Assembly (NCBI GenBank): GCA_003566935.1
Contig: PXBM01000152.1
Coordinates: 1 to 29,719, forward strand
DNA length: 29,719 nt
Source of the DNA: Syntrophomonadaceae bacterium
GTDB lineage: Bacteria; Bacillota; Dethiobacteria; DTU022
Direction of reading: 5' to 3'
Shown here piece by piece: positions 3,844-28,321 of this stretch. The first letter of the stretch is position 1. Every line of letters starts with the position of its first letter. Below the pieces are notes generated by a model. The model worked only from the letters and a program-made list of their open reading frames with translations. It did no database searches and was not told the origin of the DNA. A program made the translations under genes and the position numbers.

Positions 3844-3849
3844 TTATGA

Positions 3850-4284: not shown

Positions 4285-4535
4285 AATCATTCTCCTCCTG
4301 TAAGCATTTTATTTGCCCTTAACAAAAATTAGTCAATTTGGGCACACAATGCTCGGCATGCTATCCATCTGCTTTTATGGTATCCGTAAGAGTGCTTATA
4401 TTGCTATTAGCAATATCCCCATTATTCAGTAAGCAATTACATAATAACCGTTATCCACATTTAAAAGGATTTTTTTACAACAACCTTGAATTGCTTTTAC
4501 AGCGCAACTAAATATTCTTAAAGGGATGATGTTCA

Positions 4536-5672: not shown

Positions 5673-5786
5673 TAACTTGCTTCAGCAATATGTTAATAAG
5701 TAATTGGCAGGCTTGAAGACAAACTGCCAGAATGAATATGAGTGATCTATACCACCACATTTTCGATTACTTACTGTGTTTCTGCA

Positions 5787-5795
5787 TGGTAGAAT
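5787..5795 (+). promoter_or_regulatory. Candidate extended -10 promoter element upstream of eda
   Basis: TG-G-TAGAAT at 5787-5795, about 40 bp before the start; -35 weak. Confidence 0.3.
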
Positions 5796-5833
5796 GGTTT
5801 ATAAAACTAAAATGCCATCGAGGAGGAACGAAA

Positions 5834-6487: not shown

Positions 6488-6495
6488 TAAAAGCG

Positions 6496-7524
6496 TTATC
6501 GCTGAACTCTTCCTGATGCATCCCCTTTCATCAGCAGCTCAACTTCAGCTGATGTAATAAGGTTATAATCTCCTGGAATAGTATGCTTCAGACAGGATGA
6601 AGCAGCCGCAAATTCTATAGCATCTTTGTGCTTTTTATCACTGAGAAAACTATAAATCAGACCCGCTCCAAAAGAATCTCCTCCACCGACACGATCTACT
6701 ATCGGGATAATATCGTATCTCTTTGAAATATAAAAATCAGTACCATCATATAAAAGACCGGACCAGCCGTTATGTGAAGCTGAAAAGCTTTCCCGCAGGG
6801 TTATGGCAACATATTTAAAGCCGAACTCTTTCTTTAATTTTTTCGCCACTTCTTTGTAGGATGAACCATCAACTTTGCCTTCTGAAATGTTTGCCGCCTC
6901 AGCTTCGATCCCAAAAACCTTTGCTGCGTCTTCTTCATTAGCAATACATAAATCCACATTTTCAACTAAAGCTGACATAATTTTTTTTGCTTTGTCAGTG
7001 GACCAAAGATTTTTACGGTAATTTAGATCCACGCTAACACTCACACCTGCCTTTTGTGCAGCCCAAACTGCCTCTCTAGTGATAGAAGCAGCATTTTCTC
7101 CAAGAGCCGGTGTTATACCTGTAAAGTGGAACCAAGAAGTATTATTAAATATCTTTTCCCAGTCAAAATCTGAAGGAACTGCTTCTGCTAGAGAAGAGTT
7201 TGCCCTGTCATAGATCACTTTTGAAGGCCGTTGTGCCGAACCGCTTTCGAGGTAATAGATGCCAAGCCTATTGCCACCTTTAGCAACATAGCTGGTATCA
7301 ACTCCGTAACGTTGCAAACTGCCTATTGCTGCCATACCAATTAAACTGTCAGGAACCCTGGTGACATAGAAAGCATTCATATTAAATTGGGCCAGCGATA
7401 CAGCAACATTTGCTTCACTACCGGCGTAGGTTACATCAAAAGCCTGGGCCTGCTGAATACGCTGATGCCCGGGGGTAGAAAGTCTGAGCATTATTTCTCC
7501 GAAAGTCACGACTTTTTTATTCAT
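6496..7524 (-). CDS. kdgK: 2-dehydro-3-deoxygluconokinase (PfkB family)
   Basis: VVTFGEIMLRLS, AGSEANVA, VIYDRANS, DLNYRKNLW, ANEED, ITLRES.SASHNGW, DRVGGGDSFGAG, LKHTIPGD...GRVQR, all typical of KdgK. Confidence 0.9.
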   Translation of the reverse strand: MNKKVVTFGEIMLRLSTPGHQRIQQAQAFDVTYAGSEANVAVSLAQFNMNAFYVTRVPDSLIGMAAIGSLQRYGVDTSYVAKGGNRLGIYYLESGSAQRPSKVIYDRANSSLAEAVPSDFDWEKIFNNTSWFHFTGITPALGENAASITREAVWAAQKAGVSVSVDLNYRKNLWSTDKAKKIMSALVENVDLCIANEEDAAKVFGIEAEAANISEGKVDGSSYKEVAKKLKKEFGFKYVAITLRESFSASHNGWSGLLYDGTDFYISKRYDIIPIVDRVGGGDSFGAGLIYSFLSDKKHKDAIEFAAASSCLKHTIPGDYNLITSAEVELLMKGDASGRVQR

Positions 7525-7560
7525 AAGATAGCTCCTTCCAAATGAAAAATAATAAATTCA

Positions 7561-9597
7561 TTACGAGAACAAACTCCATGTCGCATCTCTACCGGCATGT
7601 TCTATGGTTAAAGTTGACAATGGAAAATCTGCTTTTGAATACGGATTATCGTAGCGGGGATAACCTCCGAGCTCTACTACTTTGCCCTGCTGTCTCAGCG
7701 GTCCCTGCCAGCCAAATTCAAGCAGCCCCTGCGATGGAGAATTGTAAGCAACATTCTGTCCGTTAAATTTTAGAGAAGCACCGGCAATCCTGTCAATGAA
7801 AATATTAAATTCTCCATCGACTTCTCTCCGTCCCATTTCGCAAATCCAGATATTCTTTAAGCCGCTGGCTATGATTTCACAGCCGGCATCATCACCCTCA
7901 GTCTGCCAATAATAGCTGTTTTGCGTGCGCAAGGCAATGTAGCCATCTCCCTTTCTGCCGAAAATCCATTCTTTTTCTTCAACTACTTCATCAAAGCGAT
8001 CCCGGGGAAACCAGGCATGGGTGAAAAATAATTTATTTGTCATGTAAATGCCGGGCATGCGAGAAATTCTATAGACTGCAATCAAAACATTTTTAACCTG
8101 GGCTACCCTCGGCAGGGTCCCCGATCCAACCCAATAACCAGCCGAGCTCTCTTCCTTGCTTCCCGGATGAGTTGTGAAACAAACTGTACTGGGCGACAGG
8201 GTTGCCTGCCAGATATGCTGCTGATCGCCACCATAACCAGCCCGGTAATCCTGGGCAGCACTAAGCATATAATCGGGAGTGCGGTAAGTATAAAGATTAA
8301 CCTCTTCCCTGGCATTCCTGGTGATATCTTTTTCGAAGAGGCGAGCAAAAAGACCCAGCAGGTTAAATGTGCGCAGGAAATCGATCAGTTTCTTTTTCGC
8401 TTTGAACATGTCAAAAAACTGGTTTTCCCACCAACAAAAAGCATCAAACATTCGCATGGTCAGGGCTATTGTTTTTGGGTGAGTGTAAGCTTCCAGGCTG
8501 AGAAAAACCATTCCGCTGTCCAGGTCTTTAAAGTTTAGCCCCCATTTTTCAGCCTCATCAATTCTAATGCCCATGCGCTGAAGATTGATCATTTCAGAGC
8601 GGTTTTGATCTCTGGCGACTTCATAGATTACCGGAGGCAAAGTATACTCAGGACTTAAGGCCAGGGTCACGGCGCTCATATTATCGCTTCCGGAAAAAAT
8701 GCCCATCCCGAATAACAGCTTTGCCGTATCGATAGTAGATTCGACCAGAGCGTTTTTCTTCTCCTTTCCATAGCTTCTCCCGTGAGTTGAAGAGAAAGCA
8801 CCATAAAAATTATTTAAGGCCAGGTCATAGAGAAGTAGGTCAAGAACCATTCTTGCTTTTGATGCTATTTCTTCATCGCGACAAAAATCAACGAGGTTTA
8901 CCAGGGCGGTAATATCTTCATCATAGTAAATATGTGAAAGCCACTCGCTAAAACCGGTTTTATATCTCAATAAAAGCCATTGGAGTATGCGCGGTAGGGC
9001 ATGGTTCATTTTTTCCCTTCCACTCATTTTAGAGTTGCTAAATACTTCATCGGGATAAAGCTGCCCGGCCAGGTATTCATTGGCTAAGAACATAATCTGG
9101 TGATTCTCCGTCCAGTAACACATAGAGTCAATACCCGGTTCATCCGGCCAGTATTTAAAACCAAGCACAGTTTTTTTAGCACCGGCAAGAAGCTCTTCGC
9201 TTATTAACTTACTATCAGGGAACTGGTATAGCAGGCGAATTATCCCAAGCAGAACAAAGTCCGAGCAATCAAAGCGTTTATCTATATATTCAATCGCTCC
9301 TTCAATTGCACCCTCATAAACCGGCCCATTATTTTTATAGAGTCTGGCCAATTCGTAATAATATCCCTTGATAGTCGGAGCAGCAGGGTTGCGCAGGCAG
9401 TGTTCCAGGAAAGCTTCTTTTCTTTTTTCATACTCCTCTTCAAAAGGAAATACCGTATATTCATCCGGACTAGGTTCTGCCGGATAACCAGGTGGAGGAT
9501 TACCCTTTTGGATGACCCTAAAATCGGTTACGCTGGTTGTATGAAAAAAATCATGCTGGTAGACCTGCTCTTCATTTTCATTAGTTTGGCTGTCCAT
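7561..9597 (-). CDS. Uncharacterised 678-aa WTENH-motif protein, no signal peptide; paralog of 9675..11843; possibly an alpha-toroid plus beta-sandwich (heparinase II/III-like) fold
   Basis: Long ORF with RBS and collinear motif identity to the neighbouring gene (FKYW.DEP, WTENHQI, EYLAGQL.PDE.F.N, HGR, HIWQATL). The fold call is inference. Confidence 0.6.
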   Translation of the reverse strand: MDSQTNENEEQVYQHDFFHTTSVTDFRVIQKGNPPPGYPAEPSPDEYTVFPFEEEYEKRKEAFLEHCLRNPAAPTIKGYYYELARLYKNNGPVYEGAIEGAIEYIDKRFDCSDFVLLGIIRLLYQFPDSKLISEELLAGAKKTVLGFKYWPDEPGIDSMCYWTENHQIMFLANEYLAGQLYPDEVFSNSKMSGREKMNHALPRILQWLLLRYKTGFSEWLSHIYYDEDITALVNLVDFCRDEEIASKARMVLDLLLYDLALNNFYGAFSSTHGRSYGKEKKNALVESTIDTAKLLFGMGIFSGSDNMSAVTLALSPEYTLPPVIYEVARDQNRSEMINLQRMGIRIDEAEKWGLNFKDLDSGMVFLSLEAYTHPKTIALTMRMFDAFCWWENQFFDMFKAKKKLIDFLRTFNLLGLFARLFEKDITRNAREEVNLYTYRTPDYMLSAAQDYRAGYGGDQQHIWQATLSPSTVCFTTHPGSKEESSAGYWVGSGTLPRVAQVKNVLIAVYRISRMPGIYMTNKLFFTHAWFPRDRFDEVVEEKEWIFGRKGDGYIALRTQNSYYWQTEGDDAGCEIIASGLKNIWICEMGRREVDGEFNIFIDRIAGASLKFNGQNVAYNSPSQGLLEFGWQGPLRQQGKVVELGGYPRYDNPYSKADFPLSTLTIEHAGRDATWSLFS

Positions 9598-9674
9598 AGA
9601 TCTAAATCGCTCCTTGCCTAAAATCTAAATTATTACGCTCCCCATGTTAATATCTTATGCTTTAGCCTTCTTTA

Positions 9675-11843
9675 CTAGCCTTTAATCACTCTACGATTCT
9701 TTTCAAAATCCAGCTCTAATTCATGTTCGCCTAGGGAAATGGTAAAGACAGTCTGTCCAAAATCTGTTTGACAGTAAGGATTATTAAAGCGGGGGTAATT
9801 TCGCAAAGGAATCTCTTTCCCGTCTAATATAAAGGGCCCTTCCCAGCCAACCTGGTATAAGCCATTACCGGGAGATTCATAATTTACCTTCAACCCGTCT
9901 ACCTCTACCAGGGCCCTGGCGATTGAATTGCTGAATTCCTCAAATGAACCGTCCACACTCTCTCGGCCTAAATGGCAGATCCATACATTTTGCCTTCCCA
10001 GAACAATTACTTCCTGGTCAGCATCAGGACCTTCCGTTTGCCATTCATAGGGCAAGTGTGAGTAAAGGGCCAGGTACCCTTTATTTCTGCGGCCCAGGAT
10101 CCAGCTGCCTTCTCCAGTGGCAGGAAATTCTTTGATCTCATCAAAAGCCCACCTGGGAAAATAGGCATGGGTAAAAGCGAAAAGCCCGGTGTCTTCCGCT
10201 CCAATCCCCTCCAGTAAATTGGGAATGCGATCAATATTGTAAATACTGATAAGCACGTTGCGATGCTGGACTGTTCGGGGGAAACGACCTTGAGAAGCCC
10301 AGTACCCGGGACGTCCCGCTCGAAGAGAGCCGGGATTGGTTACAAACACTACTGCGTAAGGATCCAGGGTAGCCTGCCAAATGTGATGCTGGTATCCTTT
10401 CTCTCCCTTGCGGTAATCCTGGGCACAGGAGAGCATGTAGTCGGGGCTACGGTAAGTTACCTTGTTCACCTGTGATTTTACCATTCCATTGCTATCGGGA
10501 CCCAACCATTCCACTCCCAGCCCCAGCAAACCCAACCTGGAGAGGGTTTGCCCCAGGTCGGCCAGGGGGGCAAAATCCGGATAGTGCCATAGGTCCCATT
10601 TATTGGCAGTATGCACTGTAAGATCTACTACTTTGGGATGGGTAAAAGCGTGCATAGCCCACCAGATAGGCACATCTTCTACATTATCAAAACTAAGGTT
10701 ATATTTTTCGGCCTCTGCTTCATTGACATTAATCGAATGCCGCTCATAATTGGTCATCTCTTCGGGCAAATCCTGACCTATTTTTTCTAAGACAGGTGGC
10801 AGGTTATAGCGCTCACTAGTGGCAAAAGAAACACTGGCAATGTTATCAGTGGATTGAAAGCGGCCCAAGCCCCACAATAGGGCCTGGGTTGTAACCAGGT
10901 TATCCCCGGCAGCGCTCTTGATATGCCGCACAGAGGCCCTCCCGTGAGATGTTCCATAATGGCCATAGAATGAATCGGCTGCCATATCCAGCAGCATTAT
11001 GTCCACCATAATTACAGCTTTTTGGGAAATCTCCTCGTCTTCCGCAAAGTCCACCAGGTTAAGTAAAGCCCCCATCATGTGGGCGTAATATGGGACAGAA
11101 TCCCATTCGGCAAAGCCAGTTCGCGCGCGCCAGTTCATCCATCGTAGAATTTTGGCCCGGGCGTGCTCCATGCGCCACCGCCCAGACTGGTCATTGTTAG
11201 TAAATGTTTCGTCAGGAAAAAGTTGTCCGGCCAGGTACTCGGCAGTGTGAACCAGGATCTGGTGATTTTCCGTCCACAGCTCCATCTTGGAGTCGGTAGG
11301 ATTAGGCTCATCCAGCCAGTACTTGAAATCCAGGAAAGTTTGCCTGATCGATTTTTTCTGGGCAGCAGTCAACAAATCGCCGTCGGCATGCTTGTAATAT
11401 ATACGTATTAAAGTCTGCATGCTGAAATCCGAGGTGTCTTCCCTGGAATTAACCTTGTCCAGCTCTTGCTGCAGCTTTGCCTGGGTCAAAGAAGATCCCA
11501 GTTCCATGCGGCAAAGATCCGCCCGCAAACCATCTACCTCTGCAGGCTCTTCTGCCACCCATTCCAGGTATGCCTGCCGTCTTTCTTCAAGAGATGGCTT
11601 TAAGGGTGTACGGTAAAAGGGAGGATCGCCGGGCGAAGGGCGCGAAGGGACAGGATCGCCTTCCCGAAAAGCGGGCCATTCCGGGCTTACCGCCCTTATT
11701 TCCCTGGCAATAATTCCACCTGCCACCCCGGCAGCAGCCAACCCGCCGCAACCAATGAGAAAAGATCGGCGGGTAATGCCGCTTTCACTTTTAAAGACAG
11801 CACCTTGTAGATTGCCCCCGGCAGGGTTTTTGTCAGTACTCAT
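9675..11843 (-). CDS. Uncharacterised WTENH-motif protein with twin-arginine (Tat) signal; paralog of 7561..9597
   Basis: ITRRSFLIGCGGLAAAGVAGGII matches the S/T-R-R-x-F-L consensus plus a hydrophobic region. The ATG at 11843 has good AGGAG spacing (GTG at 11852 is an alternative). Confidence 0.65.
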   Translation of the reverse strand: MSTDKNPAGGNLQGAVFKSESGITRRSFLIGCGGLAAAGVAGGIIAREIRAVSPEWPAFREGDPVPSRPSPGDPPFYRTPLKPSLEERRQAYLEWVAEEPAEVDGLRADLCRMELGSSLTQAKLQQELDKVNSREDTSDFSMQTLIRIYYKHADGDLLTAAQKKSIRQTFLDFKYWLDEPNPTDSKMELWTENHQILVHTAEYLAGQLFPDETFTNNDQSGRWRMEHARAKILRWMNWRARTGFAEWDSVPYYAHMMGALLNLVDFAEDEEISQKAVIMVDIMLLDMAADSFYGHYGTSHGRASVRHIKSAAGDNLVTTQALLWGLGRFQSTDNIASVSFATSERYNLPPVLEKIGQDLPEEMTNYERHSINVNEAEAEKYNLSFDNVEDVPIWWAMHAFTHPKVVDLTVHTANKWDLWHYPDFAPLADLGQTLSRLGLLGLGVEWLGPDSNGMVKSQVNKVTYRSPDYMLSCAQDYRKGEKGYQHHIWQATLDPYAVVFVTNPGSLRAGRPGYWASQGRFPRTVQHRNVLISIYNIDRIPNLLEGIGAEDTGLFAFTHAYFPRWAFDEIKEFPATGEGSWILGRRNKGYLALYSHLPYEWQTEGPDADQEVIVLGRQNVWICHLGRESVDGSFEEFSNSIARALVEVDGLKVNYESPGNGLYQVGWEGPFILDGKEIPLRNYPRFNNPYCQTDFGQTVFTISLGEHELELDFEKNRRVIKG

Positions 11844-11887
11844 CGCTGTCACTCCTCACTTATTTCTCCTTTAAAATTAGAGGCTGC

Positions 11888-12661
11888 TTAAGAAACCATA
11901 GCCTCAATTTTTTTCATAAAGGAAGCAATATCTTTACCGTATTCAGGAGAACCGTCCACGGTCAGGTAACCCAGTTTCATTGCTTCAACATTATCGATTT
12001 GCCCGGTTAGAACCTGGAAAGCCCCTTCATTACCGGAAAAAAGCATGTGCACAAATGGTTTACGCCTAGTGTATAAACCTTTGCCCGCCTTGGTGCGACC
12101 TTTTTTTATACGCAAGTAAGCTGCAGGACCATCAGGCGCTACCGACCACTGGAAAATACGATCAGGCATGGGACCGGTAAATATTTTCATCTCTTCGTCT
12201 CCGGCTTTATTTAGCTGAGATAGGGCTACCGAGATAAAGTAGAGCAGCATTTTTACTTTCAATGCTCTCTTTTGCGGATCTTTTGGTTTTTTTGAAGGCA
12301 GTAAAAGGGTCAGCCCGAGCATCAGGGGCAGGAATCCCGCCAGGGTGGTGAAATTTTTCAGCGCCCCCCTGATTTTTGGCAGGGCAATTTTCCCGGTCAT
12401 CAGGGCATTAAATGAGGCGGCATTTTTGAAGCAGAAGTCTATATCGGGATTATCGTGCCTGCCGCTGATATATTCAACCTTCCCATCATTAATGAATATA
12501 TGGCAGGCCAGATCCGGATCATTTTCCACCTGGAACTGGACAATTCTCTTCCAGCCCTTATATTTCTCAGCTAATTTCGGATTTTCTTCCACCAGGACCC
12601 TGGTCAGGGGGAGAGCTGCATTCATCAGTAACCTGGCTACAAGCTTTTCTTTATCAGCCAT
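11888..12661 (-). CDS. Tandem SCP2 (sterol carrier protein 2)-like lipid-binding domain protein
   Basis: Two repeats of an SCP2-like pattern: HIFINDGKVEYISG...PDIDF...FNALMTG, and AYLRIKKG...AFQVLTGQIDNVEAMKLGYLTVDG. GAGGAGG RBS. Confidence 0.55.
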   Translation of the reverse strand: MADKEKLVARLLMNAALPLTRVLVEENPKLAEKYKGWKRIVQFQVENDPDLACHIFINDGKVEYISGRHDNPDIDFCFKNAASFNALMTGKIALPKIRGALKNFTTLAGFLPLMLGLTLLLPSKKPKDPQKRALKVKMLLYFISVALSQLNKAGDEEMKIFTGPMPDRIFQWSVAPDGPAAYLRIKKGRTKAGKGLYTRRKPFVHMLFSGNEGAFQVLTGQIDNVEAMKLGYLTVDGSPEYGKDIASFMKKIEAMVS

Positions 12662-12682
12662 AAACAGCTAACCTCCTCTTTT

Positions 12683-13702
12683 TTATAGTTCATCTTCCCA
12701 GTCATCATCTTCTTCAACTTCTTTACCCAGCATCTCCGCCACCGCTTCGGTAATCCCTTCTGCATCAATCTTGTAAAGATTATAGAGGTCATCCGTTTGG
12801 CCTACAATGGCAAAAACATCAGGAATACCCAACCTTTTTAACCGACACGATTTACCCTCCTCGGTAATTACCTCGGCCACAGCACTGCCAAGGCCTCCTA
12901 TAACGCTATGGTTTTCTACAGTAATAATTTTTCGCGTGTCGTTAACCGCTTCAATAATCGCTTCACGGTCAATTGGTTTGATGGTATGCATGTTGAGCAC
13001 CCGCACCTCAATGCCCTGGCTTTCTTTCAGTTCTTTAGCCGCCTCCAAAGCTTGCAGCACGCAGGGGCCGCAGGCTATAACAGTTATATCACTGCCCTCG
13101 TGCATGGTTACAGCTTTGCCTATTTCAAAATCATAATTTTCTTTTTCATAAACAGTTTGCTCAAAACCACGGCCAATACGCATGTAGAGGGGGCCGGGAC
13201 GGTCCAGCGAAGCACGTACAGCATTGGCCGTTTCTATACCATCGGCCGGCACCACAACTGTCATATTGGCAAATGAACGCATCACTGCCAGATCTTCGGT
13301 GCAGTGATGAGTAGATCCGGCAGTTCCGAAAGATAGTCCCGAGTGTGTGGCAATGATTTTGCAATCAAGGTTCTGGTAACAGATGTCCGTACGAACTTGT
13401 TCACCAGCCCGCAGTGAAGCAAAGACAGCGAAGGTAGAAACAAAGGGTACGTACCCGGCCAGGGCTAACCCGGCTGCGATACCAAAGAGGTTTTGTTCGG
13501 CAATGCCCACATTAAAAAACCTTTCGGGATGCTTTTCTCCAAACTTGCCAATCTTAGTCGATTTAGCCAGGTCGGCCGTTAATGCGACTAGATCTTTTCT
13601 TTCTTCACCCAGCTGGGCCAGTACATGCCCATAAATTTCCGCCGGAGTCATATGGTCTGTATCATACACGCTATATGTGAGGCCTGATTCTTCACTCATC
13701 AT
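12683..13702 (-). CDS. Split transketolase, C-terminal (pyrimidine-binding plus C-terminal) subunit
   Basis: TADLAKST, ERFFNVGIAEQN, STFAVF, THSGLSFGTAGSTHH, LNMHTIKPID, ENHSVIGGLGSAVAE. AAGGAGG RBS. Confidence 0.93.
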   Translation of the reverse strand: MMSEESGLTYSVYDTDHMTPAEIYGHVLAQLGEERKDLVALTADLAKSTKIGKFGEKHPERFFNVGIAEQNLFGIAAGLALAGYVPFVSTFAVFASLRAGEQVRTDICYQNLDCKIIATHSGLSFGTAGSTHHCTEDLAVMRSFANMTVVVPADGIETANAVRASLDRPGPLYMRIGRGFEQTVYEKENYDFEIGKAVTMHEGSDITVIACGPCVLQALEAAKELKESQGIEVRVLNMHTIKPIDREAIIEAVNDTRKIITVENHSVIGGLGSAVAEVITEEGKSCRLKRLGIPDVFAIVGQTDDLYNLYKIDAEGITEAVAEMLGKEVEEDDDWEDEL

Positions 13703-13722
13703 AATCCTCCTTTCTTTATTCC

Positions 13723-14565
13723 TTAAATTTTGTTATACATGCGGTCAATCGATTTCAGGGCATCTTCGGCCATACTGGTATCAAGTCCACCGTAATGCCA
13801 TTCCGGTTTATCTTCCATGTAATCTACACCTTTACCCTTAACAGTGTGACAAATTATTACAGTTGGCTTATCATCAAGCTGTTGTGCCTTTTCTATCTTT
13901 TCACCAAGTGCTTTGAAATCGTGACCGTCACATTCAAGTACATTCCAACCGAATGCGGTCCACTTTTCCCCGATCGGTTCCAGCGACATCACATCTTCGG
14001 TGCATCCGTCAATGCAGTGCATGTTGCGATCAACAAAGCCGGTCAGGTTATTCAACTTATAATGGGCGGCAGCCATCGCCCCTTCCCAGATACTTCCTTC
14101 GGCCAGCTCGCCATCACCCATGATACAGTAAGTGCGCCAGTCCTTATTCTTTAATCTGGCACCCAGAGCCAGTCCGACGGCAATCGGCAACCCATGACCC
14201 AGGGAACCAGTTGATGCATCAAGGCCTTTTACCTTCAGACGGTCCAGGTGCATGCCAAAAAGCGAGCCAGTGTGGTTAAATGTTTTCAGCAGCTCTGAGG
14301 AGAAAAACCCTTTTTCGGCCAGAACCGGGGCCAGGCCAACACCGCCATGTCCCTTGCTAAGCACCATTCGGTCACGATCTTCCCATTGTGGGTTCTCCGG
14401 GTCAACCTTCATGTAGTGGAAGTAGAGAGCTACCAGGATTTCAACCTGGCTCAGTCCGCCGCCGATATGACCGCCACCCGCCCACTGGGTGGTTTGGACT
14501 ACACTACGCCTGATTTTCCAGGCTATTTCGTTCAATGTGCCAATTTCTTTTTCAGACAGGGCCAT
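13723..14565 (-). CDS. Split transketolase, N-terminal (ThDP-binding) subunit
   Basis: GGHIGGGLS, DRMVLSKGH, STGSLGHGL, ThDP motif GDGELAEG...VDRN, DGHD, TVKGKGV, WH. Confidence 0.93.
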   Translation of the reverse strand: MALSEKEIGTLNEIAWKIRRSVVQTTQWAGGGHIGGGLSQVEILVALYFHYMKVDPENPQWEDRDRMVLSKGHGGVGLAPVLAEKGFFSSELLKTFNHTGSLFGMHLDRLKVKGLDASTGSLGHGLPIAVGLALGARLKNKDWRTYCIMGDGELAEGSIWEGAMAAAHYKLNNLTGFVDRNMHCIDGCTEDVMSLEPIGEKWTAFGWNVLECDGHDFKALGEKIEKAQQLDDKPTVIICHTVKGKGVDYMEDKPEWHYGGLDTSMAEDALKSIDRMYNKI

Positions 14566-14608
14566 TTATCATACCTCCCATAAATAATGTAGAAATTAAC
14601 TATCTATA

Positions 14609-15886
14609 TTAAACTGCCAGGCAAGGCGATTTACCGTCCAGCGCACTCTTGACGGCTTTCATCGCCTCCTCGGCATGATTAAGCGTTTCCTTGATATCTA
14701 TTTCATCGTGGGCTACCGACAGAAACCAGTTGTGGTGGGGATGAAAGAAAGAACCCCTTTTAGTTACCTCCGAGCAGAAAAGCTGATTAAGGTAAAGGCT
14801 GGGATCATCACAGAAATGAATGAAAGGTATGGCTGGTGGCCCCGAAGGATTGATCTCCAGTCCGTGACGCTGCCCAATTTCCACCAGTCCGTCGATTAGT
14901 AGTTGTCCGCTTTTTTCCATCTTTTTAACCGCCTCAGTATTTTCTAACTCCTCAAGGGTAGCCAGAGCTGCAGCCATAGGCACAGCCGACATCCAGAAGG
15001 ATCCTGTAAAGAAAACCTTCGATGCAGCGGTCATCAGTTCTTTTTTGCCAACACAGGCCGAGATAGGGTATCCGTTACCCACGGCCTTGCTGAAGCAAAT
15101 CAGGTCCGGCTTAAAACCGAAATATTCATTTGAACCGCCCAGGTTTAAACGGAAACCGGCCCGCACATCATCAAGGATCAAGACTATTTCTTCCTCGCGA
15201 CAAATCTTTTCTACCCCTGTCCAGTAACCTTCAGCCGGTAGCTCCTGCCTGCCGAAAGTAATGTGATGGTACGGCATAGCAATAAAAGCAGCTATTTCTC
15301 CGCGATTTTCCTTTGCCATCTGCCGAAAACCATCAAGGTCGTTCCATTCTACCTGAAGGGTATTCTGACGATCTTCAGCAGTAACACCACCGTGTCCATA
15401 ACTGGTACACCACGGCGCCACCCCGTGATAGTGGCCGCGAACAGTTATTACTTTTTTTCGGTTTGTATGAGCCCTTGCGGCCAGGGTAGCATAAGTAGTC
15501 ATATCGCCTCCATTTTTGGCGAAAAAAGCCCAGTCAGCAATGGGTACCATGTCTACCAGCTTTTCTGCCAGCTCAACCATAACCGGTCCCGGATGATTTG
15601 TAGTATCAGCCATTTTTCGCTGGGCTTCCGCTGCCCCGTCTATCACAGGGTTTCCATAACCCAAGACCATCGGTCCGTAAGCACACATATAATCGATGAA
15701 CTCATTTCCATCAATATCCTTATAGCGGCAGCCATTTGCCTCCGCCGTGTAATAAGGATATTCACCCGGCACCATCGCCGTAGGTGACATGTGGCCGTAT
15801 ATTCCGCCTGGTATCAACGTGGCCGCTTTTTCAAACAGCTCCATACTTTTATTATAAGTGTAAGTTTTTCTACCATTCTCTTTCAC
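14609..15886 (-). CDS. Class III (fold type I) PLP aminotransferase, glutamate-1-semialdehyde-aminomutase-like but divergent
   Basis: DIDGNEFIDYMCAYGPMVLGY, LILDDVRAGFR, PDLICFSKAVGNGYPISA (PLP Lys), FTGSF. GTG start at 15886 after GGGAGG. Confidence 0.88.
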   Translation of the reverse strand: MKENGRKTYTYNKSMELFEKAATLIPGGIYGHMSPTAMVPGEYPYYTAEANGCRYKDIDGNEFIDYMCAYGPMVLGYGNPVIDGAAEAQRKMADTTNHPGPVMVELAEKLVDMVPIADWAFFAKNGGDMTTYATLAARAHTNRKKVITVRGHYHGVAPWCTSYGHGGVTAEDRQNTLQVEWNDLDGFRQMAKENRGEIAAFIAMPYHHITFGRQELPAEGYWTGVEKICREEEIVLILDDVRAGFRLNLGGSNEYFGFKPDLICFSKAVGNGYPISACVGKKELMTAASKVFFTGSFWMSAVPMAAALATLEELENTEAVKKMEKSGQLLIDGLVEIGQRHGLEINPSGPPAIPFIHFCDDPSLYLNQLFCSEVTKRGSFFHPHHNWFLSVAHDEIDIKETLNHAEEAMKAVKSALDGKSPCLAV

Positions 15887-16012
15887 AATATATACCTCCC
15901 TCCAAACCATTCTTAAATTCTTCAACCCAATTGCTGCAACCTTAAATTAACAAATCAGAATTAGAACATCGTTGTAATAATATGTTTATGGCAGCCCATT
16001 TTTATTACATCT

Positions 16013-16786
16013 CTAACCCGACAGGTAAAGGGACAAACGGTCCAGGATAGGATTTATACCATCGATCAGCGGTATAAGCCCGCGAATCTTCACTTTTTTA
16101 CTGCCAATAGCTGCAAACTGGTCCATTTCGCCCTGCAGCATAATCCAGGCTGACTGAAGATCTTCAAACTCAAGGTAAGCACATGGTTCTACTGCCCTCC
16201 CCTTACCGGGATTAAATAAACCATTTTCCACTTCCAGATGAACGGCAGGTCCATCTTTAACCCTGATTTCCACTATGCCCCGGGGTAGATTTCTGGCCAG
16301 GGGGATCATATCAGGGTCTTCTTCACCTATGACCTTTACCCCGTAAACCATGGCATACAGGGTCAGCCTTACACAGTTGGAAAAGGCTTCGGGATCACTT
16401 AAAAGGTCTTCATCCGGCTCCAGGTAATACTCTATTTTTTTTAAGAGCGAATCAACTTTTAACAGCTCTTTTAGACGAAACAGACCATAAAGGTTCGGAC
16501 GAGGGCTTTTATCAGATTTTCCCTGGAAAACAGCATTAAGCGTTGCTGCATTGCTGAAAGTAAGCACCGCTGCAGGACCTGGAGATCTCGCCCGCCATGC
16601 TTCGACCGTACCTTCTTTAAACAAAAGGCTTGAAGCATGCAGACCGCCTGGTAGTTGAAACTGCAGGTTAAAATTCCAATCCTTTATAATGTCTCTAACC
16701 TCTTCATCAATTTCAGCAATATCCTCTAAAAGAGGAACAACAGCTTTGAGATAAATAGCAGCCAGTACACTTTCACTTAATACCAT
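16013..16786 (-). CDS. Tandem SCP2-like lipid-binding domain protein, paralog of 11888..12661
   Basis: Collinear with 11888..12661 (WNFNLQFQL/WKRIVQFQV; FSNAATLNAVFQG/FKNAASFNALMTG; GPAVHLEVENG/GPAAYLRIKKG). SCP2-type tail LQGEMDQFAAIGSKKVKIRG. ATG at 16786 after GGGGTG. Confidence 0.55.
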   Translation of the reverse strand: MVLSESVLAAIYLKAVVPLLEDIAEIDEEVRDIIKDWNFNLQFQLPGGLHASSLLFKEGTVEAWRARSPGPAAVLTFSNAATLNAVFQGKSDKSPRPNLYGLFRLKELLKVDSLLKKIEYYLEPDEDLLSDPEAFSNCVRLTLYAMVYGVKVIGEEDPDMIPLARNLPRGIVEIRVKDGPAVHLEVENGLFNPGKGRAVEPCAYLEFEDLQSAWIMLQGEMDQFAAIGSKKVKIRGLIPLIDGINPILDRLSLYLSG

Positions 16787-16994
16787 TCCTTTTTCACCCC
16801 ATTTTCTATCTTGAAGAAAATACAAACAACTCTTTATGACAATTCGCTCAAAACAACTTGCTGAAGAAAGATATAAACAAGCAAATGAAAAATAATTTTA
16901 TTTAGCACAACCATTTTTACTGTTTCATCATAAGGCTGCTGCAATGTGTCAATAAATTGATGATCAGCTCAATGTGCCATGATAATAAATTGGA

Positions 16995-18098
16995 TTAACG
17001 CTCCCAGCTATTTTTTATAGTCACGCCCAGGTTCTCAAGTTCACCTATAAACTGGTCCGGGTTGTCGATTAACCTTTCTGCAGCGTATATACCGCCTGGT
17101 TTCTGATTCCATTTTCCCTCGGCAAGCCATTTAGCTGCCAAATAACAGGGAAGAGAAGTGATATCGGCAATGTGCCCCACATAGCAAAAGCTTACTTGTT
17201 CGTTTTGCCCTGAACTATTTTGTCCGCTAACATCAACCCTTCCAACAGATTTGTTGTTACCTGAAGAAGCAAACCAGCTTTCAATACGGTGAAAAAATCG
17301 AGCAGCAGCAAGCCGCTTTTTATGATTCGAAGTAAGACCCAGGGCTGCCAGTAATTTTAAAAGGGTTACTATGTATGGGGGCTTTACGCCACCATGCAGG
17401 GTAACTTCTGTTAACCCGGGCAGATTGCGGGGCAGAGAAACAGATTCGGCATGCCCGGTATAATAGACCGGATTTAGGCCAATTGGATCCGGAAAATGGA
17501 CATTTTTTTTACCAGTCCCGGTTTTTACGCTAACCTCGTTACCATTCAGCCATTGCAGGGTAGTGCCGGTAAATATATGAAAAAGATGGGCCAGGTTTGA
17601 AGGGCCTACGGGCTCATCAGATCCTGCACACCAGTGGACATTTATTTTTTCCGGCTTATCTAGAGCAAGGTAGCCTTTTTTTGCTAAAACCTGGGTTAAG
17701 CCTGGCGAATTTCCGAACCCGGTTAAAATTTTTATGCCTTTTGTGCAGGCCTCCTCCTCGAATTTCAGGATCTCAAGGTACGCATCATAGTCATCGCTGA
17801 TAGAAATATAGTCCCTCCCGGCTTCAAGAGCAGCTTTAACCATTATTTTTTCATAATAGTAGAATGGGCCAATATAGCCGATTGAAAAATCATGTTCTTG
17901 CATAAGGCATACCAAAAGCGAAAAATCATTAGCATTTACATAAGCTGATTTAAACTTTCGTTTCTTCCCTGCAATTTCTTCCGCTTTTTCCTTGTTTAAA
18001 TCTGCTACCGTCACTTCTGTAAAGGCGCTGTCGTCAGCAAGTTTGGATATAAGAGGTCCAGCCATATCTGCACAACCACCGAGCAGTAATACTTTCAT
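16995..18098 (-). CDS. Saccharopine dehydrogenase family NAD(P)-binding oxidoreductase
   Basis: N-terminal Rossmann strand-loop, VTVADLN, IGPFY, YISISDD, GFGNSPGL, YYTGHAES. The ATG at 18098 is the properly spaced start after AGGAG. Confidence 0.8.
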   Translation of the reverse strand: MKVLLLGGCADMAGPLISKLADDSAFTEVTVADLNKEKAEEIAGKKRKFKSAYVNANDFSLLVCLMQEHDFSIGYIGPFYYYEKIMVKAALEAGRDYISISDDYDAYLEILKFEEEACTKGIKILTGFGNSPGLTQVLAKKGYLALDKPEKINVHWCAGSDEPVGPSNLAHLFHIFTGTTLQWLNGNEVSVKTGTGKKNVHFPDPIGLNPVYYTGHAESVSLPRNLPGLTEVTLHGGVKPPYIVTLLKLLAALGLTSNHKKRLAAARFFHRIESWFASSGNNKSVGRVDVSGQNSSGQNEQVSFCYVGHIADITSLPCYLAAKWLAEGKWNQKPGGIYAAERLIDNPDQFIGELENLGVTIKNSWER

Positions 18099-18156
18099 AA
18101 AGGCCATCTCCTAACTTTTGCATCAAGGAAACCATCTCCCTGACACTCTTGATCTG

Positions 18157-18522
18157 CTATTCCGCATCCAGCCGCTCGCTGGCTTGAATGTTTAGAGGAC
18201 CTACTTCCCTGGTTTGCAGAACAATAGTTATTTCATAATTACCCGGATCAGGGGCCGCTTCAGGGACATGGATGACTGCCTTTTCTTTTAGCCCGAAATG
18301 AAGGGCATTGTCATTGCTTAAATCTTTACCGGGAATGGTTTTGTCGGATAGTCTTATAATTACATTTTCCGTATAATCTTTATCGTTTAAAATAAGGCTG
18401 TTTATACCGACCAGGTGAGCAGGAGCTACCGGGTTGATCAGGGTAAAAGCTAATCCGCCTTCCAGGAAGGTTAGGGAGCCCTTTACAAAAATCTTTTTCA
18501 ACATAAAGGGTGGTATTTGCAT
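18157..18522 (-). CDS. Small uncharacterised beta-rich protein (MQIPPFMLKKIFVKGSL type)
   Basis: 121-aa ORF with AAAGGA RBS, tightly packed in the operon, with alternating beta-strand patterning. I recall similar N-termini in hypothetical proteins but cannot confirm a family. Confidence 0.6.
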   Translation of the reverse strand: MQIPPFMLKKIFVKGSLTFLEGGLAFTLINPVAPAHLVGINSLILNDKDYTENVIIRLSDKTIPGKDLSNDNALHFGLKEKAVIHVPEAAPDPGNYEITIVLQTREVGPLNIQASERLDAE

Positions 18523-18540
18523 CAGGTTTCATCCTTTCTT

Positions 18541-20577
18541 TTATCTACTTAATCGAATTGTAACCTCATAATACTTTTCTTCTCCGCTTTTTAACTCAAG
18601 ACTACTGCACCAGGCAATCTTTTGGTGATAACCTTTACCTGTTGAAGAAGGTTCCATAACTTCCCATTTGCCATCACCCAGGGTCGTTTGGACTACTTTG
18701 AAAAATAATGAACCCTTAGGTGTAAAATAGTTAAACCCATTTTCATTAAGCTCATAACTATAACCTTTATCACAACGTAATGAAAGCCCTGGCGCTCCTA
18801 CAAGACGGCCTTTGAAAGCATCATTAGCATATAAAGTGGTTCTAATCCTTAATAGTTCGGCTTCCATGATATAGGTTTGCTTAAAACGCAACCCGCTATA
18901 GGAGATTTCAATTTCAGGATGACCTTCTTTATCTTTTCTTATTTTTCCGCGGTTTATAGGAACCTCAATAGTAGAGTCGGGTAACTCAAGATCCGGAAGA
19001 TCTGAAGTAGACCATTCACCTTCTCGCAGAGATTGTTCAAGAACAGGCAGCATGGTTTGACAACCCTGCAATCCAAGCATGGCAAGACCGGCTACTCCTG
19101 TATTATGAACCCCGGAATGAGGATAAGGTGATATATCACTGCCTGAGAAAATAACATAATAAAAATGTTCATTGCTCTGTGCAGCAAGCCGGGAACCTGG
19201 ATAAATAAGTAAGTTTTCTTTTTCAAGCTCCAGCGGTTCTTCCTGCCAGTTATCGGGAACCAGGTTCAGGCTTCGTATTAAAAAGTAAGCATTGGTGCCG
19301 TTGTAAGGAGTCTGGCAATGGCTCCAACCAATTAATTCTTCCGGGTAACTGTTAAGTCCAACAGGATAATTACCCTCACTCAACTTGAAAGGCCTGATAT
19401 AATCCAGGACTAACCGGACAGCACGGTAAAATCGAGGTGCAAGATCGTCCCTATGAGAAGCAACTTTCAAGTATACATAAATCGATGATACTAAGTGGTA
19501 TATATTGTTAGCCGATCTGCCAAGGTAAGATACTTCACCACCCGGTGTAGTCATTGAAAGGCTAAACAAAGCACCCTTCTCAAGCATTAACCATACTTCT
19601 TCCAGTGGAAGATAATCATAACCGCGAGCCAACCACGAAAGCGCATAAAGGTGATAAGTAAGGTCGTGGGCATCGTTGTAACCGCCAAAAGAGATTTCTG
19701 AGTAGTTGTTGTCCTGGATTAAACCATCGACAGTCTGGTCCTGTTTCAGCCGGCTGAGAAGTGAATGAGGGTCATAACTGCTCTTTACGCCCTGAATTTT
19801 TTCCAGGTAATAGTTAAGCAGTGACCACCAATGATAGCGCAGGGCGTAAACATTAGTGGGGGAGTACTCCTCATTAGTAATCATTTCATCATATAAAGAT
19901 CGCCAGCGTACAATATCCACATCTTCAGATTTTCCAACCATAAATTCTTCCACTGTCTCAATATAGGCCGGATTTTTAAAATCACAGTGGGGCATCCCGT
20001 CTAAGTATGTCGCTTCATAGCGAGGGTATATCCGCGTGATAAAGTCAAGAGCAGCCTTAGCGGCCTCCAGGTAATGGTCGCCGTAACCGTTAGCTGCCAT
20101 CCAACCGAAAGCATAGGCTGAATACGCATCAGCATAATAAGTTCCTGCTACCTGCGGTTCAAAAAGAAAGGCTTCCATATTAACCAGTTCATCGAAAATA
20201 CCACCACTGTCATAGGCAATCAGCTTTAACTCATTATTATTTTCACCGCAAAATCCACTGAATTGATATGTAATACCACCTTCACCATTAGCAGGGTTTT
20301 TTATCTTGTGACCGGGATAAAGCCGGAAAAACTGACCTTCTTTAACCTGCAAGAAACTGTTCTCTCCTTCTTCGGTATTTACCAGAAGTATGTCACCCTC
20401 CCGCTTTGCTATAAAAGCATATGGACCCGGATCTTTACGAATAAAGTGGTATTGCAAACTGGCTTGTTCTCCGTTTTTCAGAGAACAGGAAATATCTTCT
20501 GCAATGACCTGGTAATTATAGAGATATTCATTCATACTCCATATCTCTTCTTTTATTATCCTGCTTATATCATTCAC
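18541..20577 (-). CDS. Uncharacterised 678-aa protein, probably a helical barrel/toroid plus C-terminal beta domain (carbohydrate-active-like)
   Basis: Long ORF whose RBS lies within the end of the upstream gene. The aromatic-rich helical core (YLEAAKAALDF, HDLTYHLYALSWLA, TPGGEVSYLGRS) is followed by a beta-rich C-terminus. Function is inference only. Confidence 0.5.
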   Translation of the reverse strand: MNDISRIIKEEIWSMNEYLYNYQVIAEDISCSLKNGEQASLQYHFIRKDPGPYAFIAKREGDILLVNTEEGENSFLQVKEGQFFRLYPGHKIKNPANGEGGITYQFSGFCGENNNELKLIAYDSGGIFDELVNMEAFLFEPQVAGTYYADAYSAYAFGWMAANGYGDHYLEAAKAALDFITRIYPRYEATYLDGMPHCDFKNPAYIETVEEFMVGKSEDVDIVRWRSLYDEMITNEEYSPTNVYALRYHWWSLLNYYLEKIQGVKSSYDPHSLLSRLKQDQTVDGLIQDNNYSEISFGGYNDAHDLTYHLYALSWLARGYDYLPLEEVWLMLEKGALFSLSMTTPGGEVSYLGRSANNIYHLVSSIYVYLKVASHRDDLAPRFYRAVRLVLDYIRPFKLSEGNYPVGLNSYPEELIGWSHCQTPYNGTNAYFLIRSLNLVPDNWQEEPLELEKENLLIYPGSRLAAQSNEHFYYVIFSGSDISPYPHSGVHNTGVAGLAMLGLQGCQTMLPVLEQSLREGEWSTSDLPDLELPDSTIEVPINRGKIRKDKEGHPEIEISYSGLRFKQTYIMEAELLRIRTTLYANDAFKGRLVGAPGLSLRCDKGYSYELNENGFNYFTPKGSLFFKVVQTTLGDGKWEVMEPSSTGKGYHQKIAWCSSLELKSGEEKYYEVTIRLSR

Positions 20578-20580
20578 AGG

Positions 20581-24882: not shown

Positions 24883-24919
24883 AACAGTTCACCTCGGAAA
24901 TAATTTGTCAATCCGTAGT

Positions 24920-25765: not shown

Positions 25766-25771
25766 TTTATA

Positions 25772-27277: not shown

Positions 27278-27314
27278 ACCTCCCTTTCGATTAACTTAGT
27301 GAGTCATGGCAATG

Positions 27315-28295: not shown

Positions 28296-28321
28296 TTTAC
28301 CATGATCTCCTTTGCTTCTAT

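Follow-up and report, generated by a model that had tools for sequence, protein, structure and literature searches.

Split transketolase locus

What does a transketolase (TK) act on when several of the residues with which such enzymes recognize sugar phosphates have been replaced? This question is raised by a pair of adjacent genes in a stretch of 29,719 nucleotides from a Syntrophomonadaceae bacterium, the whole of which was analysed and is termed here the window. The PP, Pyr and C-terminal domains of the enzyme are divided between two polypeptides, TK_N and TK_C (Table 1), with all three Pfam models scoring above their cut-offs, and as judged from their sequences the two subunits together constitute a split member of the transketolase superfamily of the ThDP-dependent, alpha2beta2 type. 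The same two-gene, three-domain layout is seen in the canonical split TK of Carboxydothermus hydrogenoformans (ChTK; PDB: 6YAK/6YAJ; PMC7661550), with which the subunits show near full-length matches (E-values of 2e-75 and 7e-83). The coordinates of the adjoining aminotransferase are those of the longest open reading frame, opening with a TTG, and its real start is probably a few codons inward; for SCP2_b, the ATG at 16786 is the likely start.

Table 1. Positions in the window of the split TK, its key residues and its neighbouring genes
Feature	Position	Strand	Evidence
TK_N, ThDP (PP)-domain subunit, 280 aa	13723..14565	-	Pfam Transketolase_N 1.3e-45; 6YAK N-subunit 2.1e-75
TK_C, Pyr + C-terminal domain subunit, 339 aa	12683..13702	-	Pfam Transket_pyr 7.6e-42, Transketolase_C 1.2e-31; 6YAJ 7.3e-83
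Ala128 codon GCC of TK_C (E. coli Asp469)	13319..13321	-	Alignments and DNA read
Ala21 codon GCG of TK_C (E. coli Arg358, human Arg318)	13640..13642	-	Alignments and DNA read
Asn97 of TK_N (E. coli Arg91)	14275..14277	-	Asn in 56/56
Met105-His106-Leu107 of TK_N (E. coli Gly99-His100-Pro101)	14245..14253	-	Met 56/56, His 56/56, Leu 55/56
Trp256-His257-Tyr258 of TK_N (canonical WHG; Tyr for E. coli Gly262)	13792..13800	-	Tyr 56/56
ThDP/Mg motif of TK_N, GDG (150-152) to Asn181	14023..14118	-	Asp151, Asn181 invariant
Arg178 of TK_C (E. coli Arg520, phosphate ligand, kept)	13169..13171	-	Arg in 167/167
SCP2_a, tandem-SCP2 fold, 257 aa, 21 nt downstream of TK_C	11888..12661	-	Adjoins TK_C in 75/80 loci
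FumI-like class-III aminotransferase	14609..15925	-	6HBS match 6.8e-104
SCP2_b, second tandem-SCP2 paralogue	16013..16825	-	Pfam SCP2; upstream of the aminotransferase in loci having one

Replaced and retained residues of the active site

The elements with which TKs read sugar phosphates are replaced in this enzyme (Arg358 to Ala, Asp469 to Ala and Arg91 to Asn). Phmmer alignments of TK_C with 6YAJ and with human TK, ungapped around both motifs concerned, match THAGLTVGEDGASHQ to THSGLSFGTAGSTHH, which places Thr127 and Ala128 at Glu468 and Asp469 of E. coli TktA, and match HMTPAEIYG to GIATREAYG and KIATRKAYG, which places Ala21 at Arg358. Residue numbering follows alignment with TktA and with the genome's own full-length TK; when the subunits were concatenated and aligned by MAFFT to full-length TKs, the result failed near the linker, around His261 and Arg358, and the equivalents of these two residues were taken from the alignments with 6YAK/6YAJ and human TK. 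A preliminary description of the locus had proposed both replacements in TK_C, and the alignments uphold them. Asp469, which in canonical TKs reads the 2-hydroxyl of the acceptor or the 4-hydroxyl of the donor, is salt-bridged to Arg91 in the E. coli enzyme (PMC5073344); both members of this pair are absent, the change of Arg91 to Asn97 of TK_N being a further substitution that the earlier account did not contain. The canonical phosphate site (EC 2.2.1.1: Arg358, Ser385, His461 and Arg520) is incomplete, with Arg358 as the sole ligand lost and the other three of the four having invariant equivalents, likewise a point beyond the earlier account.

The catalytic apparatus is retained. In TK_N, His26, His66, His100, Asp155 and Asn185 of TktA correspond to positions 33, 73, 106, 151 and 181, and His261, through the alignment with 6YAK, to position 257; in TK_C, Asp381, Ser385, Glu411, His461, His473 and Arg520 correspond to positions 44, 48, 69, 120, 132 and 178. 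All six catalytic histidines (33, 73, 106 and 257 of TK_N; 120 and 132 of TK_C) are His throughout the family, as are Asp151, Asn181 and the cofactor-activating Glu69 (E. coli Glu411) invariantly present. With its ThDP/Mg motif, Glu411 equivalent and histidines intact, the TK_N/TK_C pair is predicted to be catalytically competent. The preliminary description had likewise listed the six histidines and the ThDP motif as kept, and had read GMHL where GHP is usual and WHY for WHG; the alignment with 6YAK shows both of these readings to be correct. Met105, Leu107, Tyr258 and Phe125, the last also counted among the family-invariant positions, are bulkier, mostly hydrophobic or aromatic residues at second-shell positions. 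In addition, new basic residues flank the Mg ligand, namely Arg180 (49 of 56 family members) and Lys or Arg182 (45 of 56), and these may compensate for the lost Arg358.

Conservation and phyletic distribution of the family

Relatives of the enzyme are encoded in about 512 species genomes. Among 167 family members of TK_C, Ala128 is universal and position 21 is Ala in 155, the others having Ser, Thr or His and never Arg; in TK_N, Asn97 and His106 occur in all 56 members, and Met105, Leu107 and Tyr258 in 55-56 of them each. Such conservation indicates that the residue changes are beyond chance and define a family. Its signature, as found here, comprises four residues (Ala358, Ala469, Asn91 and Tyr262 in E. 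coli numbering) and, directly downstream, a gene for a tandem-SCP2 protein of ~257 aa, and the Ala358/Ala469 split TKs with a tandem-SCP2 partner form one group in the tree (SH-aLRT 81). The loss of Asp469 that had been pointed out is real but not in itself unusual: when the 150 nearest representatives of split-TK C subunits (at 50% identity) are compared, 74 have no counterpart of Asp469. The hosts are largely fatty-acid-oxidizing anaerobes of the Syntrophomonadaceae, Desulfobacterales, Leptospirales and Bacteriovoracaceae, and cultured carriers include Desulfoluna limicola, D. butyratoxydans, D. spongiiphila and Desulfatiferula olefinivorans. The genome under study also encodes a canonical full-length TK with ATR, GEDG and SRQ, which indicates that the split TK is a specialized rather than a housekeeping enzyme.

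Conserved gene neighbourhoods

We searched all 24 proteins of the window by tblastn against 80 loci from other species and found that only SCP2_a, TK_C, TK_N, the aminotransferase and SCP2_b recur. The constant unit consists of TK_N, TK_C and a tandem-SCP2 protein with a lipid-carrier fold, SCP2_a being found in 75 of the 80 loci. About half of the loci (about 30 of 80) add a FumI-like aminotransferase together with a second SCP2 protein, as in the window, and other loci have in the aminotransferase's stead an aldehyde:ferredoxin oxidoreductase (13 of 80 loci), an alanine dehydrogenase, or a Zn-ADH with an SDR. Alanine dehydrogenase as a frequent partner was rejected, the cluster concerned having merged the true enzyme with the transhydrogenase PntA; NCBIfam models place true alanine dehydrogenase at six loci and PntA at five. 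Its presence at those six fits a pyruvate-dependent transaminase such as FumI (PMC3136697). A TetR regulator occurs in 25 of the 80 loci, and some loci encode a putrescine-aminotransferase-like enzyme with amino-acid permeases, a combination that suggests a soluble amine. Since a FumI-like aminotransferase is missing from about half of the loci, an amino-diol may be only one among several entry substrates. The flanks are otherwise unrelated between loci, and every type of context shows the same Ala/Ala/Tyr signature. No apiose or sulfoquinovose genes were found in the 80 loci, nor did a conserved acyl-CoA or acyl-ACP reductase lie near the TK in the loci compared.

Other genes of the window fare differently in this comparison: the ceramidase-like gene, the orphan and the sugar genes are absent beside the TK elsewhere and lend no independent support, and as genes that do not recur in the 80 loci the window neighbours were ruled out as evidence for a ceramide pathway. 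The ceramidase-like protein belongs only distantly to a bacterial family of very large size; the 725-aa orphan gave weak polysaccharide-lyase leads and shows no relationship with the 678-aa orphan encoded at 18541-20577. The same-strand genes of sugar type comprise MFS_2, GFO/IDH/MocA, a sugar-isomerase-type TIM barrel, a Zn-ADH and a KDG-kinase-like PfkB.

The recurring partners are of a different kind. The aminotransferase matches the aminopentol aminotransferase FumI of Sphingopyxis sp. MTA144 (PDB: 6HBS) with 351 bits over 400 residues (E-value 6.8e-104), whereas the best-scoring glutamate-1-semialdehyde aminomutase reaches 161 bits. The AF2 model of SCP2_a (pLDDT 94.3) contains two SCP2 domains, and its Foldseek matches are alkyl- or lipid-binding domains, namely the SCP2 domains of alkylsulfatases, SCP2 itself and UbiJ. 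A predicted complex of SCP2_a with the TK scored 0.41, against 0.12 for the best control. In a set of 80 solved complexes 58 attained this mark, as did 2 of 110 mismatched pairs; only seven of the 80 solved ones, along with both passing mismatches, did so at scores of 0.60 or below. The prediction runs share at least 57% of their contacts, with a partner pLDDT of at least 86, and the model lends weak support to a binding of SCP2_a to the TK. Taken together, the tandem-SCP2 protein, the FumI-like aminotransferase and the aldehyde:ferredoxin oxidoreductase point to a substrate with an alkyl chain.

Comparison with characterized systems

ChTK shares with the window TK the ThDP motif, Glu411 and every catalytic histidine, but has ATR, GEDG, FRK, GHP and WHG where the latter has TPA, GTAG, FNH, MHL and WHY, and it is described without an SCP2 or aminotransferase partner. 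E. coli TK changed at R358, S385, D469 and R520 gains activity on non-polar and aromatic aldehydes (PMC7661550, PMC5073344), and once Asp469, Arg358 or Arg520 is removed, TK shifts to aldehydes that are non-polar, whether aliphatic or aromatic (PMC5073344, PMC7661550, PMC13663882). Nature has altered positions of this same set in the window TK, which differs from the engineered TktA variants and from the natural split TK pQR2809 (D469L and L382A equivalents) in keeping Arg520 and Ser385 and in having Arg91 changed along with Asp469. Moreover, the change is fixed across the family and tied to a partner with a lipid-carrier fold. The D469L split TK has been assayed (PMC13663882).

FumI is a relative of the neighbouring aminotransferase and not of the TK. 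It removes the amino group at C2 of a long-chain amino alcohol resembling sphinganine and transfers it to pyruvate (PMC3136697); its substrate lacks a C1-hydroxyl, and no ThDP enzyme acting on its product is described in the FumI literature examined. SqwGH, acting on 6-deoxy-6-sulfofructose (PMC9594981), and AptAB, acting on apulose-4-phosphate, are split TKs of catabolic operons that each split an unusual ketose and pass a ketol unit to glyceraldehyde 3-phosphate. By their descriptions they stand apart in using polar sugars with an anionic group and in having no SCP2 partners.

Functional prediction and alternatives

These observations lead us to propose that the TK acts on an alkyl-tailed ketol, HOCH2-CO-CH(OH)-R, which the SCP2-fold partner would hold or deliver. 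In the window, the FumI-like aminotransferase would generate this ketol by deaminating a sphingoid-type base, a long-chain 2-amino-1,3-diol, and passing the amino group to pyruvate. The TK would then break the C2-C3 bond, releasing a fatty aldehyde without 2-hydroxyl or phosphate, and transfer the two-carbon ketol unit to a co-substrate. This co-substrate may still be phosphorylated, as glyceraldehyde 3-phosphate is, and could be bound by the retained Ser385, His461 and Arg520. Where other genomes supply an aldehyde:ferredoxin oxidoreductase, that enzyme would oxidize the aldehyde to a fatty acid. That the enzyme either cuts or makes a greasy ketol, for example a deaminated sphingosine-like lipid, is probable, and this reaction is not known to have been described; the catabolic direction is favoured, and the full proposal of a TK/SCP2 unit that cleaves an alkyl-tailed ketol supplied by an aminotransferase has, in our estimation, an even chance of being correct. 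Retention of His106 (E. coli His100) in 56 of 56 members argues for a donor ketol with a CH2OH group, as DXS-type enzymes, which use methyl-ketone donors, have Phe or Tyr at this position (PMC13663882).

The prediction of an aliphatic or lipid aldehyde made in the preliminary description is supported by context. Its "non-phosphorylated" part agrees with the loss of Arg358 but is supported only in part, because the equivalents of Ser385, His461 and Arg520 are invariant and an anionic group, for instance that of a second substrate, may still bind. The half-kept phosphate site suggests a hybrid channel that accommodates one greasy and one phosphorylated substrate; with three of the four ligands invariant, it might also be the main substrate that bears the anionic group. 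Stereochemistry also bears on the proposal. D-erythro sphingoid bases (2S,3R) would by stereochemical rules yield a (3R) ketol, and the characterized FumI substrate is 2S,3S. The former expectation counts against the lipid-ketol reading, since canonical TKs, including the assayed split ones, are (3S)-selective (PMC13663882).

If the proposal is true, this is a natural TK that evolved for hydrophobic aldehydes or ketols, a property that engineers have pursued in E. coli TK for about 15 years through D469, R358 and R520. It would also fill a gap in how anoxic sediments, digesters and guts turn over sphingoid bases or similar amino-alcohol lipids, and would assign a function to a widespread family of tandem-SCP2 proteins. 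Tentatively, and with rather more doubt than belief, we further suggest that the TK-SCP2 unit and the FumI-like aminotransferase form an undescribed ThDP-dependent pathway that converts sphingoid-type 2-amino-1,3-diols to a fatty aldehyde and a C2 ketol entering sugar-phosphate metabolism, by a route other than phosphorylation and subsequent cleavage by sphingosine-1-phosphate lyase, in some 500 mostly anaerobic bacterial species, with the first natural lipid TK that has a carrier subunit. No relevant paper emerged when the literature was searched for a transketolase linked to SCP2 or to the degradation of sphingosine. The cultured carriers make the lipid-TK reading testable.

The TK and transaminase reactions are reversible, and TK/transaminase cascades leading to 2-amino-1,3-diols are established in biocatalysis. 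The pathway might accordingly run in the biosynthetic direction, the TK joining a fatty aldehyde to a ketol donor (hydroxypyruvate or a ketose phosphate, the latter bound by the kept phosphate ligands) and the aminotransferase aminating the resulting 1,3-dihydroxy-2-ketone, to give sphingoid-like amino-diols without serine palmitoyltransferase. Aldehyde:ferredoxin oxidoreductase is also capable of reducing acids, and alanine dehydrogenase is a possible source of alanine. We nevertheless regard it as unlikely: the nearest characterized aminotransferase is catabolic, the TetR regulators, amino-acid permeases and patchy, cassette-like spread amid unrelated flanks are typical of accessory catabolism, and a conserved acyl-CoA or acyl-ACP reductase is missing nearby. 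We also know of no sphingoid-like amino-diol lipids from the host taxa.

An improbable alternative is that the enzyme cleaves a 1-deoxy (methyl-ketone) substrate in a DXS- or acyloin-type reaction, as with the 2-keto products of fumonisin-type or 1-deoxysphingoid 2-amino-3-ols, giving "active acetaldehyde" and a fatty aldehyde. The FumI substrate HFB1 is indeed a 1-deoxy 2-amino-3-ol whose product is a methyl ketone with a 3-hydroxyl, and its C3 configuration (3S) fits TK stereochemistry. However, His106 and His132 (E. coli His100 and His473), which hold the C1-hydroxyl of the donor, are invariant, while real DXS enzymes place Phe or Tyr at His100; moreover, TK models score far above DXS models on the N subunit, and the enzyme has two chains rather than one.

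It is very improbable that this is a sugar-type specialized TK, similar to AptAB or SqwGH, for a small polar non-phosphorylated, sulfonated or aminated sugar furnished by the neighbouring sugar or uronate genes. The same-strand sugar-type genes of the window would suit such a role, and an anionic sugar could be held by Arg520, Ser385 and His461, all of them invariant, but those genes never accompany the TK in the 80 other loci, even in relatives at 88-90% identity, and the conserved partners are SCP2-fold proteins and a homologue of a lipid-amine aminotransferase. Finally, an ordinary pentose-phosphate TK with odd residues acquired by neutral drift, though matching in its TK-typical fold and catalytic residues, is exceedingly improbable given substitutions that are invariant across phyla and affect substrate-binding residues of canonical TKs (Arg358, Asp469), neighbours without pentose-phosphate-pathway genes, and a canonical TK elsewhere in the same genome.

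As for expression of the cassette, a promoter and terminator scan of 11500-17300 gave counts equal to shuffled expectation. In one metatranscriptome, contigs of a close relative (90-96% alike) span SCP2_a, TK_C, TK_N and parts of the aminotransferase, which, DNA carry-over being possible, is a weak hint that the cassette is expressed.

Active-site composition of the split transketolase

The transketolase (TK) of the window is encoded by two adjoining minus-strand genes, TK_N and TK_C, whose closest solved relatives are the two chains of the Carboxydothermus hydrogenoformans split transketolase (E 2e-75 and 7e-83, respectively), an enzyme of like two-chain make-up. Around both motifs of interest, alignments of TK_C to 6YAJ and human TK are free of gaps: THAGLTVGEDGASHQ pairs with THSGLSFGTAGSTHH, and HMTPAEIYG pairs with GIATREAYG and KIATRKAYG. 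Residue equivalences in E. coli numbering were taken from an alignment including E. coli tktA and the source genome's own full-length TK, with His261 placed from the 6YAK alignment. The equivalents of Asp469 and Arg358 are both Ala, as direct reading of the codons also shows, the latter lying in TPAEIYG, which has no Arg. Retained in TK_N (prefix N) are His26 (N33), His66 (N73), His100 (N106), Asp155 (N151), Asn185 (N181) and His261 (N257), and in TK_C (prefix C) Ser385 (C48), Glu411 (C69), His461 (C120), His473 (C132) and Arg520 (C178); the ThDP motif is likewise kept, and GMHL and WHY replace GHP and WHG. All the sequence statements of the preliminary description, namely the two losses, the retained histidines and ThDP motif, and the bulkier neighbors, are correct, and its central observation is confirmed at the sequence level.

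Coordinates of the features discussed (window unless a locus is named)
Feature	Coordinates	Strand	Remarks
TK_N	13723-14565	-	280 aa; Transketolase_N
TK_C	12683-13702	-	339 aa; Transket_pyr + Transketolase_C
Ala21 of TK_C (Arg358)	13640-13642		GCG
Ala128 of TK_C (Asp469)	13319-13321		GCC
SCP2_a	11888-12661	-	tandem SCP2 fold
FumI-like aminotransferase	14609-15925	-	
SCP2_b	16013-16825	-	tandem SCP2 fold
Upstream trio	16995-20577	-	directly upstream of cassette
Ceramidase-like protein	20581-21930	-	449 aa; neutral ceramidase, weak partial match (Pfam 8e-10 over 74 residues; PDB 4WGK 7e-5)
725-aa orphan	9675-11852		
Sugar-catabolism-like block	6496-11852, 23785-29476		
Variant operon, L088 (= L024)	3677-21020		
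HGD-D pair, L086/L087	15938-18441		
HGD-D pair, L088	16453-18823		

Conservation and phyletic distribution

Of the database relatives, the 120 best (identity 63-98%) all carry the motifs FGxAG and T[QPA]AE[IV]YG wherever these are readable. Among 167 TK_C and 56 TK_N sequences, Ala128, Met105, Tyr258 and Phe125 (E. coli Leu466) are invariant, Leu107 is found in 55 of the 56 TK_N, and TK_C position 21 is Ala in 155 of 167, the remainder being Ser, Thr or His and never Arg. In E. coli TK, Arg91 forms a salt bridge with Asp469 (PMC5073344); its equivalent is Asn97 in 56/56 TK_N and, with Ala128 invariant, both members of the pair are therefore lost. The substitutions are a trait of the whole family. 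New basic residues, Arg180 and Lys/Arg182, are conserved beside the Mg ligand of TK_N. The equivalents of Ser385, His461 and Arg520 are invariant, Arg358 alone being lost from the four classical phosphate ligands. Hence, the proposal that the pocket is rewired for non-phosphorylated aliphatic or lipid aldehydes lacking a 2-OH is supported in part: the residues reading the sugar 4-OH are gone, but three-quarters of the phosphate ligands remain.

The stretches of species-representative genomes with a confirmed relative of the TK number 512 and belong to Syntrophomonadaceae and Dethiobacteria, Desulfobacterales, Leptospirales, Bacteriovoracaceae, Bacteroidota and Planctomycetota. An exhaustive HMMER search of the wider C subunits recovered 2686 cluster representatives at E <= 1e-30; among the 150 nearest, Arg358 is kept in 115 and Asp469 in 76, the latter being otherwise Leu (20), Ala (17), Gly (12) or others. 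In the tree of stand-alone C subunits, one half is canonical (Arg/Asp) and the other non-canonical; the Ala/Ala family forms one group (SH-aLRT 81), whose nearest sisters also lack Arg358 and Asp469. Natural loss of Asp469 is by itself not new, because a natural D469L split TK has already been assayed for biocatalysis (PMC13663882); what is new is the specific triad and its gene context.

Gene neighborhoods

When every protein of the window was compared by tblastn with 80 related loci (L-numbers), only SCP2_b, the aminotransferase, TK_N, TK_C and SCP2_a recurred; in 75 of the loci SCP2_a is the gene immediately downstream of TK_C. The window's genes for MFS_2, GFO/IDH/MocA, the TIM barrel, Zn-ADH, the flavoprotein, PfkB, the orphans and the ceramidase-like and saccharopine-dehydrogenase-like proteins did not recur in these 80 loci, 88-90% identical relatives included. 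By ORF clustering, the constant core of TK_N, TK_C and SCP2 stands in four types of context: A, with SCP2, FumI-like aminotransferase, TK and SCP2 (~30 loci); B, with Zn-ADH upstream and SDR downstream, without the aminotransferase; C, with aldehyde:ferredoxin oxidoreductase (13 loci overall, sometimes distant from the cassette); and D, with putrescine-aminotransferase-like enzymes, two amino-acid permeases and alanine dehydrogenase. The Ala/Ala/Tyr signature is identical in every type, and the FumI-like enzyme is absent from about half of the loci. A TetR regulator adjoins the cassette in 25 loci across types, true alanine dehydrogenase in 6 and PntA in 5 (L019, L021, L045, L063 and L073, some with PntB).

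In one variant without any aminotransferase (L049, L059, L064, L065, L072, L077, L078), the order is Zn-ADH, TK_N, TK_C, tandem SCP2 and a NAD-dependent epimerase/3beta-HSD-type SDR, which suggests an alcohol (polyol) as entry to the same TK substrate class. A variant operon of Deltaproteobacteria-type MAGs (L088, also L025-L027) comprises TetR, a split/frameshifted aminotransferase, a single-domain SCP2 (119 aa), a putrescine-aminotransferase-like enzyme and a permease, then TK_N, TK_C, tandem SCP2, a second permease and alanine dehydrogenase, followed by MoxR, VWA, two HGD-D proteins (2-hydroxyacyl-CoA dehydratase D-component family) and aldehyde:ferredoxin oxidoreductase. Genomes that are unrelated to each other share HGD-D pairs a few kb downstream of the cassette.

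Partner proteins

The best solved relative of the aminotransferase is the aminopentol aminotransferase FumI (6HBS; E 7e-104, 351 bits, 400 residues), against 161 bits for the best glutamate-1-semialdehyde aminomutase; the likeness is that of this neighboring gene. FumI deaminates hydrolysed fumonisin B1, an analogue of sphinganine, at C2, with pyruvate as preferred acceptor (PMC3136697). The predicted model of SCP2_a (pLDDT 94.3) has two SCP2-like halves, with Foldseek matches to the alkyl-binding SCP2 domains of alkylsulfatases, sterol carrier protein 2 and UbiJ. The halves are joined by a strongly hydrophobic helix (residues ~104-122, LAGFLPLMLGLTLLLP), its character conserved across the family, which could be a membrane-dipping or ligand-gating element. 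The predicted complex of TK_N, TK_C and SCP2_a hints faintly at binding, scoring 0.41 (best control 0.12), where the mark used is reached by 58/80 solved complexes and 2/110 mismatches, and passing scores of 0.60 or less comprise only 7 of the 80 solved complexes and both passing mismatches.

Proposed reaction

Judged from its residues, TK_N/TK_C appears to be a ThDP enzyme whose ketol-transfer machinery is intact, but which has lost the residues for reading the sugar 4-OH (acceptor 2-OH) and part of the phosphate site; its link to a lipid-carrier-fold protein is permanent. On the most economical interpretation, the enzyme would cleave or form HOCH2-CO-CH(OH)-R with hydrophobic R. In the window, the FumI-like enzyme would deaminate R-CH(OH)-CH(NH2)-CH2OH, a sphingoid-type base, to the ketol, which TK would cleave to a fatty aldehyde and a C2 unit. 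The retained His100 and His473 equivalents favor a CH2OH donor over a methyl ketone, and the retained Arg520, Ser385 and His461 equivalents suggest a second substrate that still carries a phosphate, e.g. GAP giving Xu5P, a product then open to processing by the canonical TK elsewhere in the genome. A biosynthetic direction would be the reverse of the same chemistry and is conceivable; the aldehyde:ferredoxin oxidoreductase, alanine dehydrogenase, TetR, permeases and fatty-acid-oxidising lifestyle of many hosts favor catabolism. A literature search found no paper linking transketolase to SCP2 proteins or sphingoid-base turnover. D-erythro sphingoid bases would yield a (3R) ketol. As canonical TKs, assayed split ones included, are (3S)-selective (PMC13663882), the natural substrate may be a threo-type amino alcohol, or the stereopreference may have changed.

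Genomic surroundings and provenance

The cassette lies inside a 23-kb same-strand block resembling polysaccharide/uronate catabolism, with a KDG-kinase-like PfkB, an MFS_2 transporter, GFO/IDH/MocA, a sugar-isomerase-type TIM barrel, Zn-ADH and two ~700-aa proteins without Pfam family, one with weak heparinase/lyase-like leads; these genes never accompany the TK in other genomes (80 related loci). Of the upstream trio, one is a saccharopine-dehydrogenase-like oxidoreductase, another (121 aa) matches the N-terminal domain of HMG-CoA reductase and nothing else, and the third is an orphan of 678 aa, unrelated to the 725-aa one. The ceramidase-like protein, not a conserved cassette neighbor in the 80 loci, belongs to a very large bacterial family (~438 aa, about 30,000 in the Atlas cluster) of unassigned function.

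On contigs C146, C238 and C121, the source MAG (1.49 Mb, 64% complete; salt-lake or soda-lake metagenomes) also encodes a full-length canonical 660-aa TK, an open frame of 636 aa that matches Transket_pyr, and the E1-beta of a 2-oxoacid dehydrogenase together with an E2. Metagenomes of salt lakes and soda lakes contain the stretch itself; they come from four named studies and from runs naming none. In one metatranscriptome library, contigs of a relative, 90-96% alike, span SCP2_a, TK_C, TK_N and parts of the aminotransferase, a slight hint that the cassette is expressed there.
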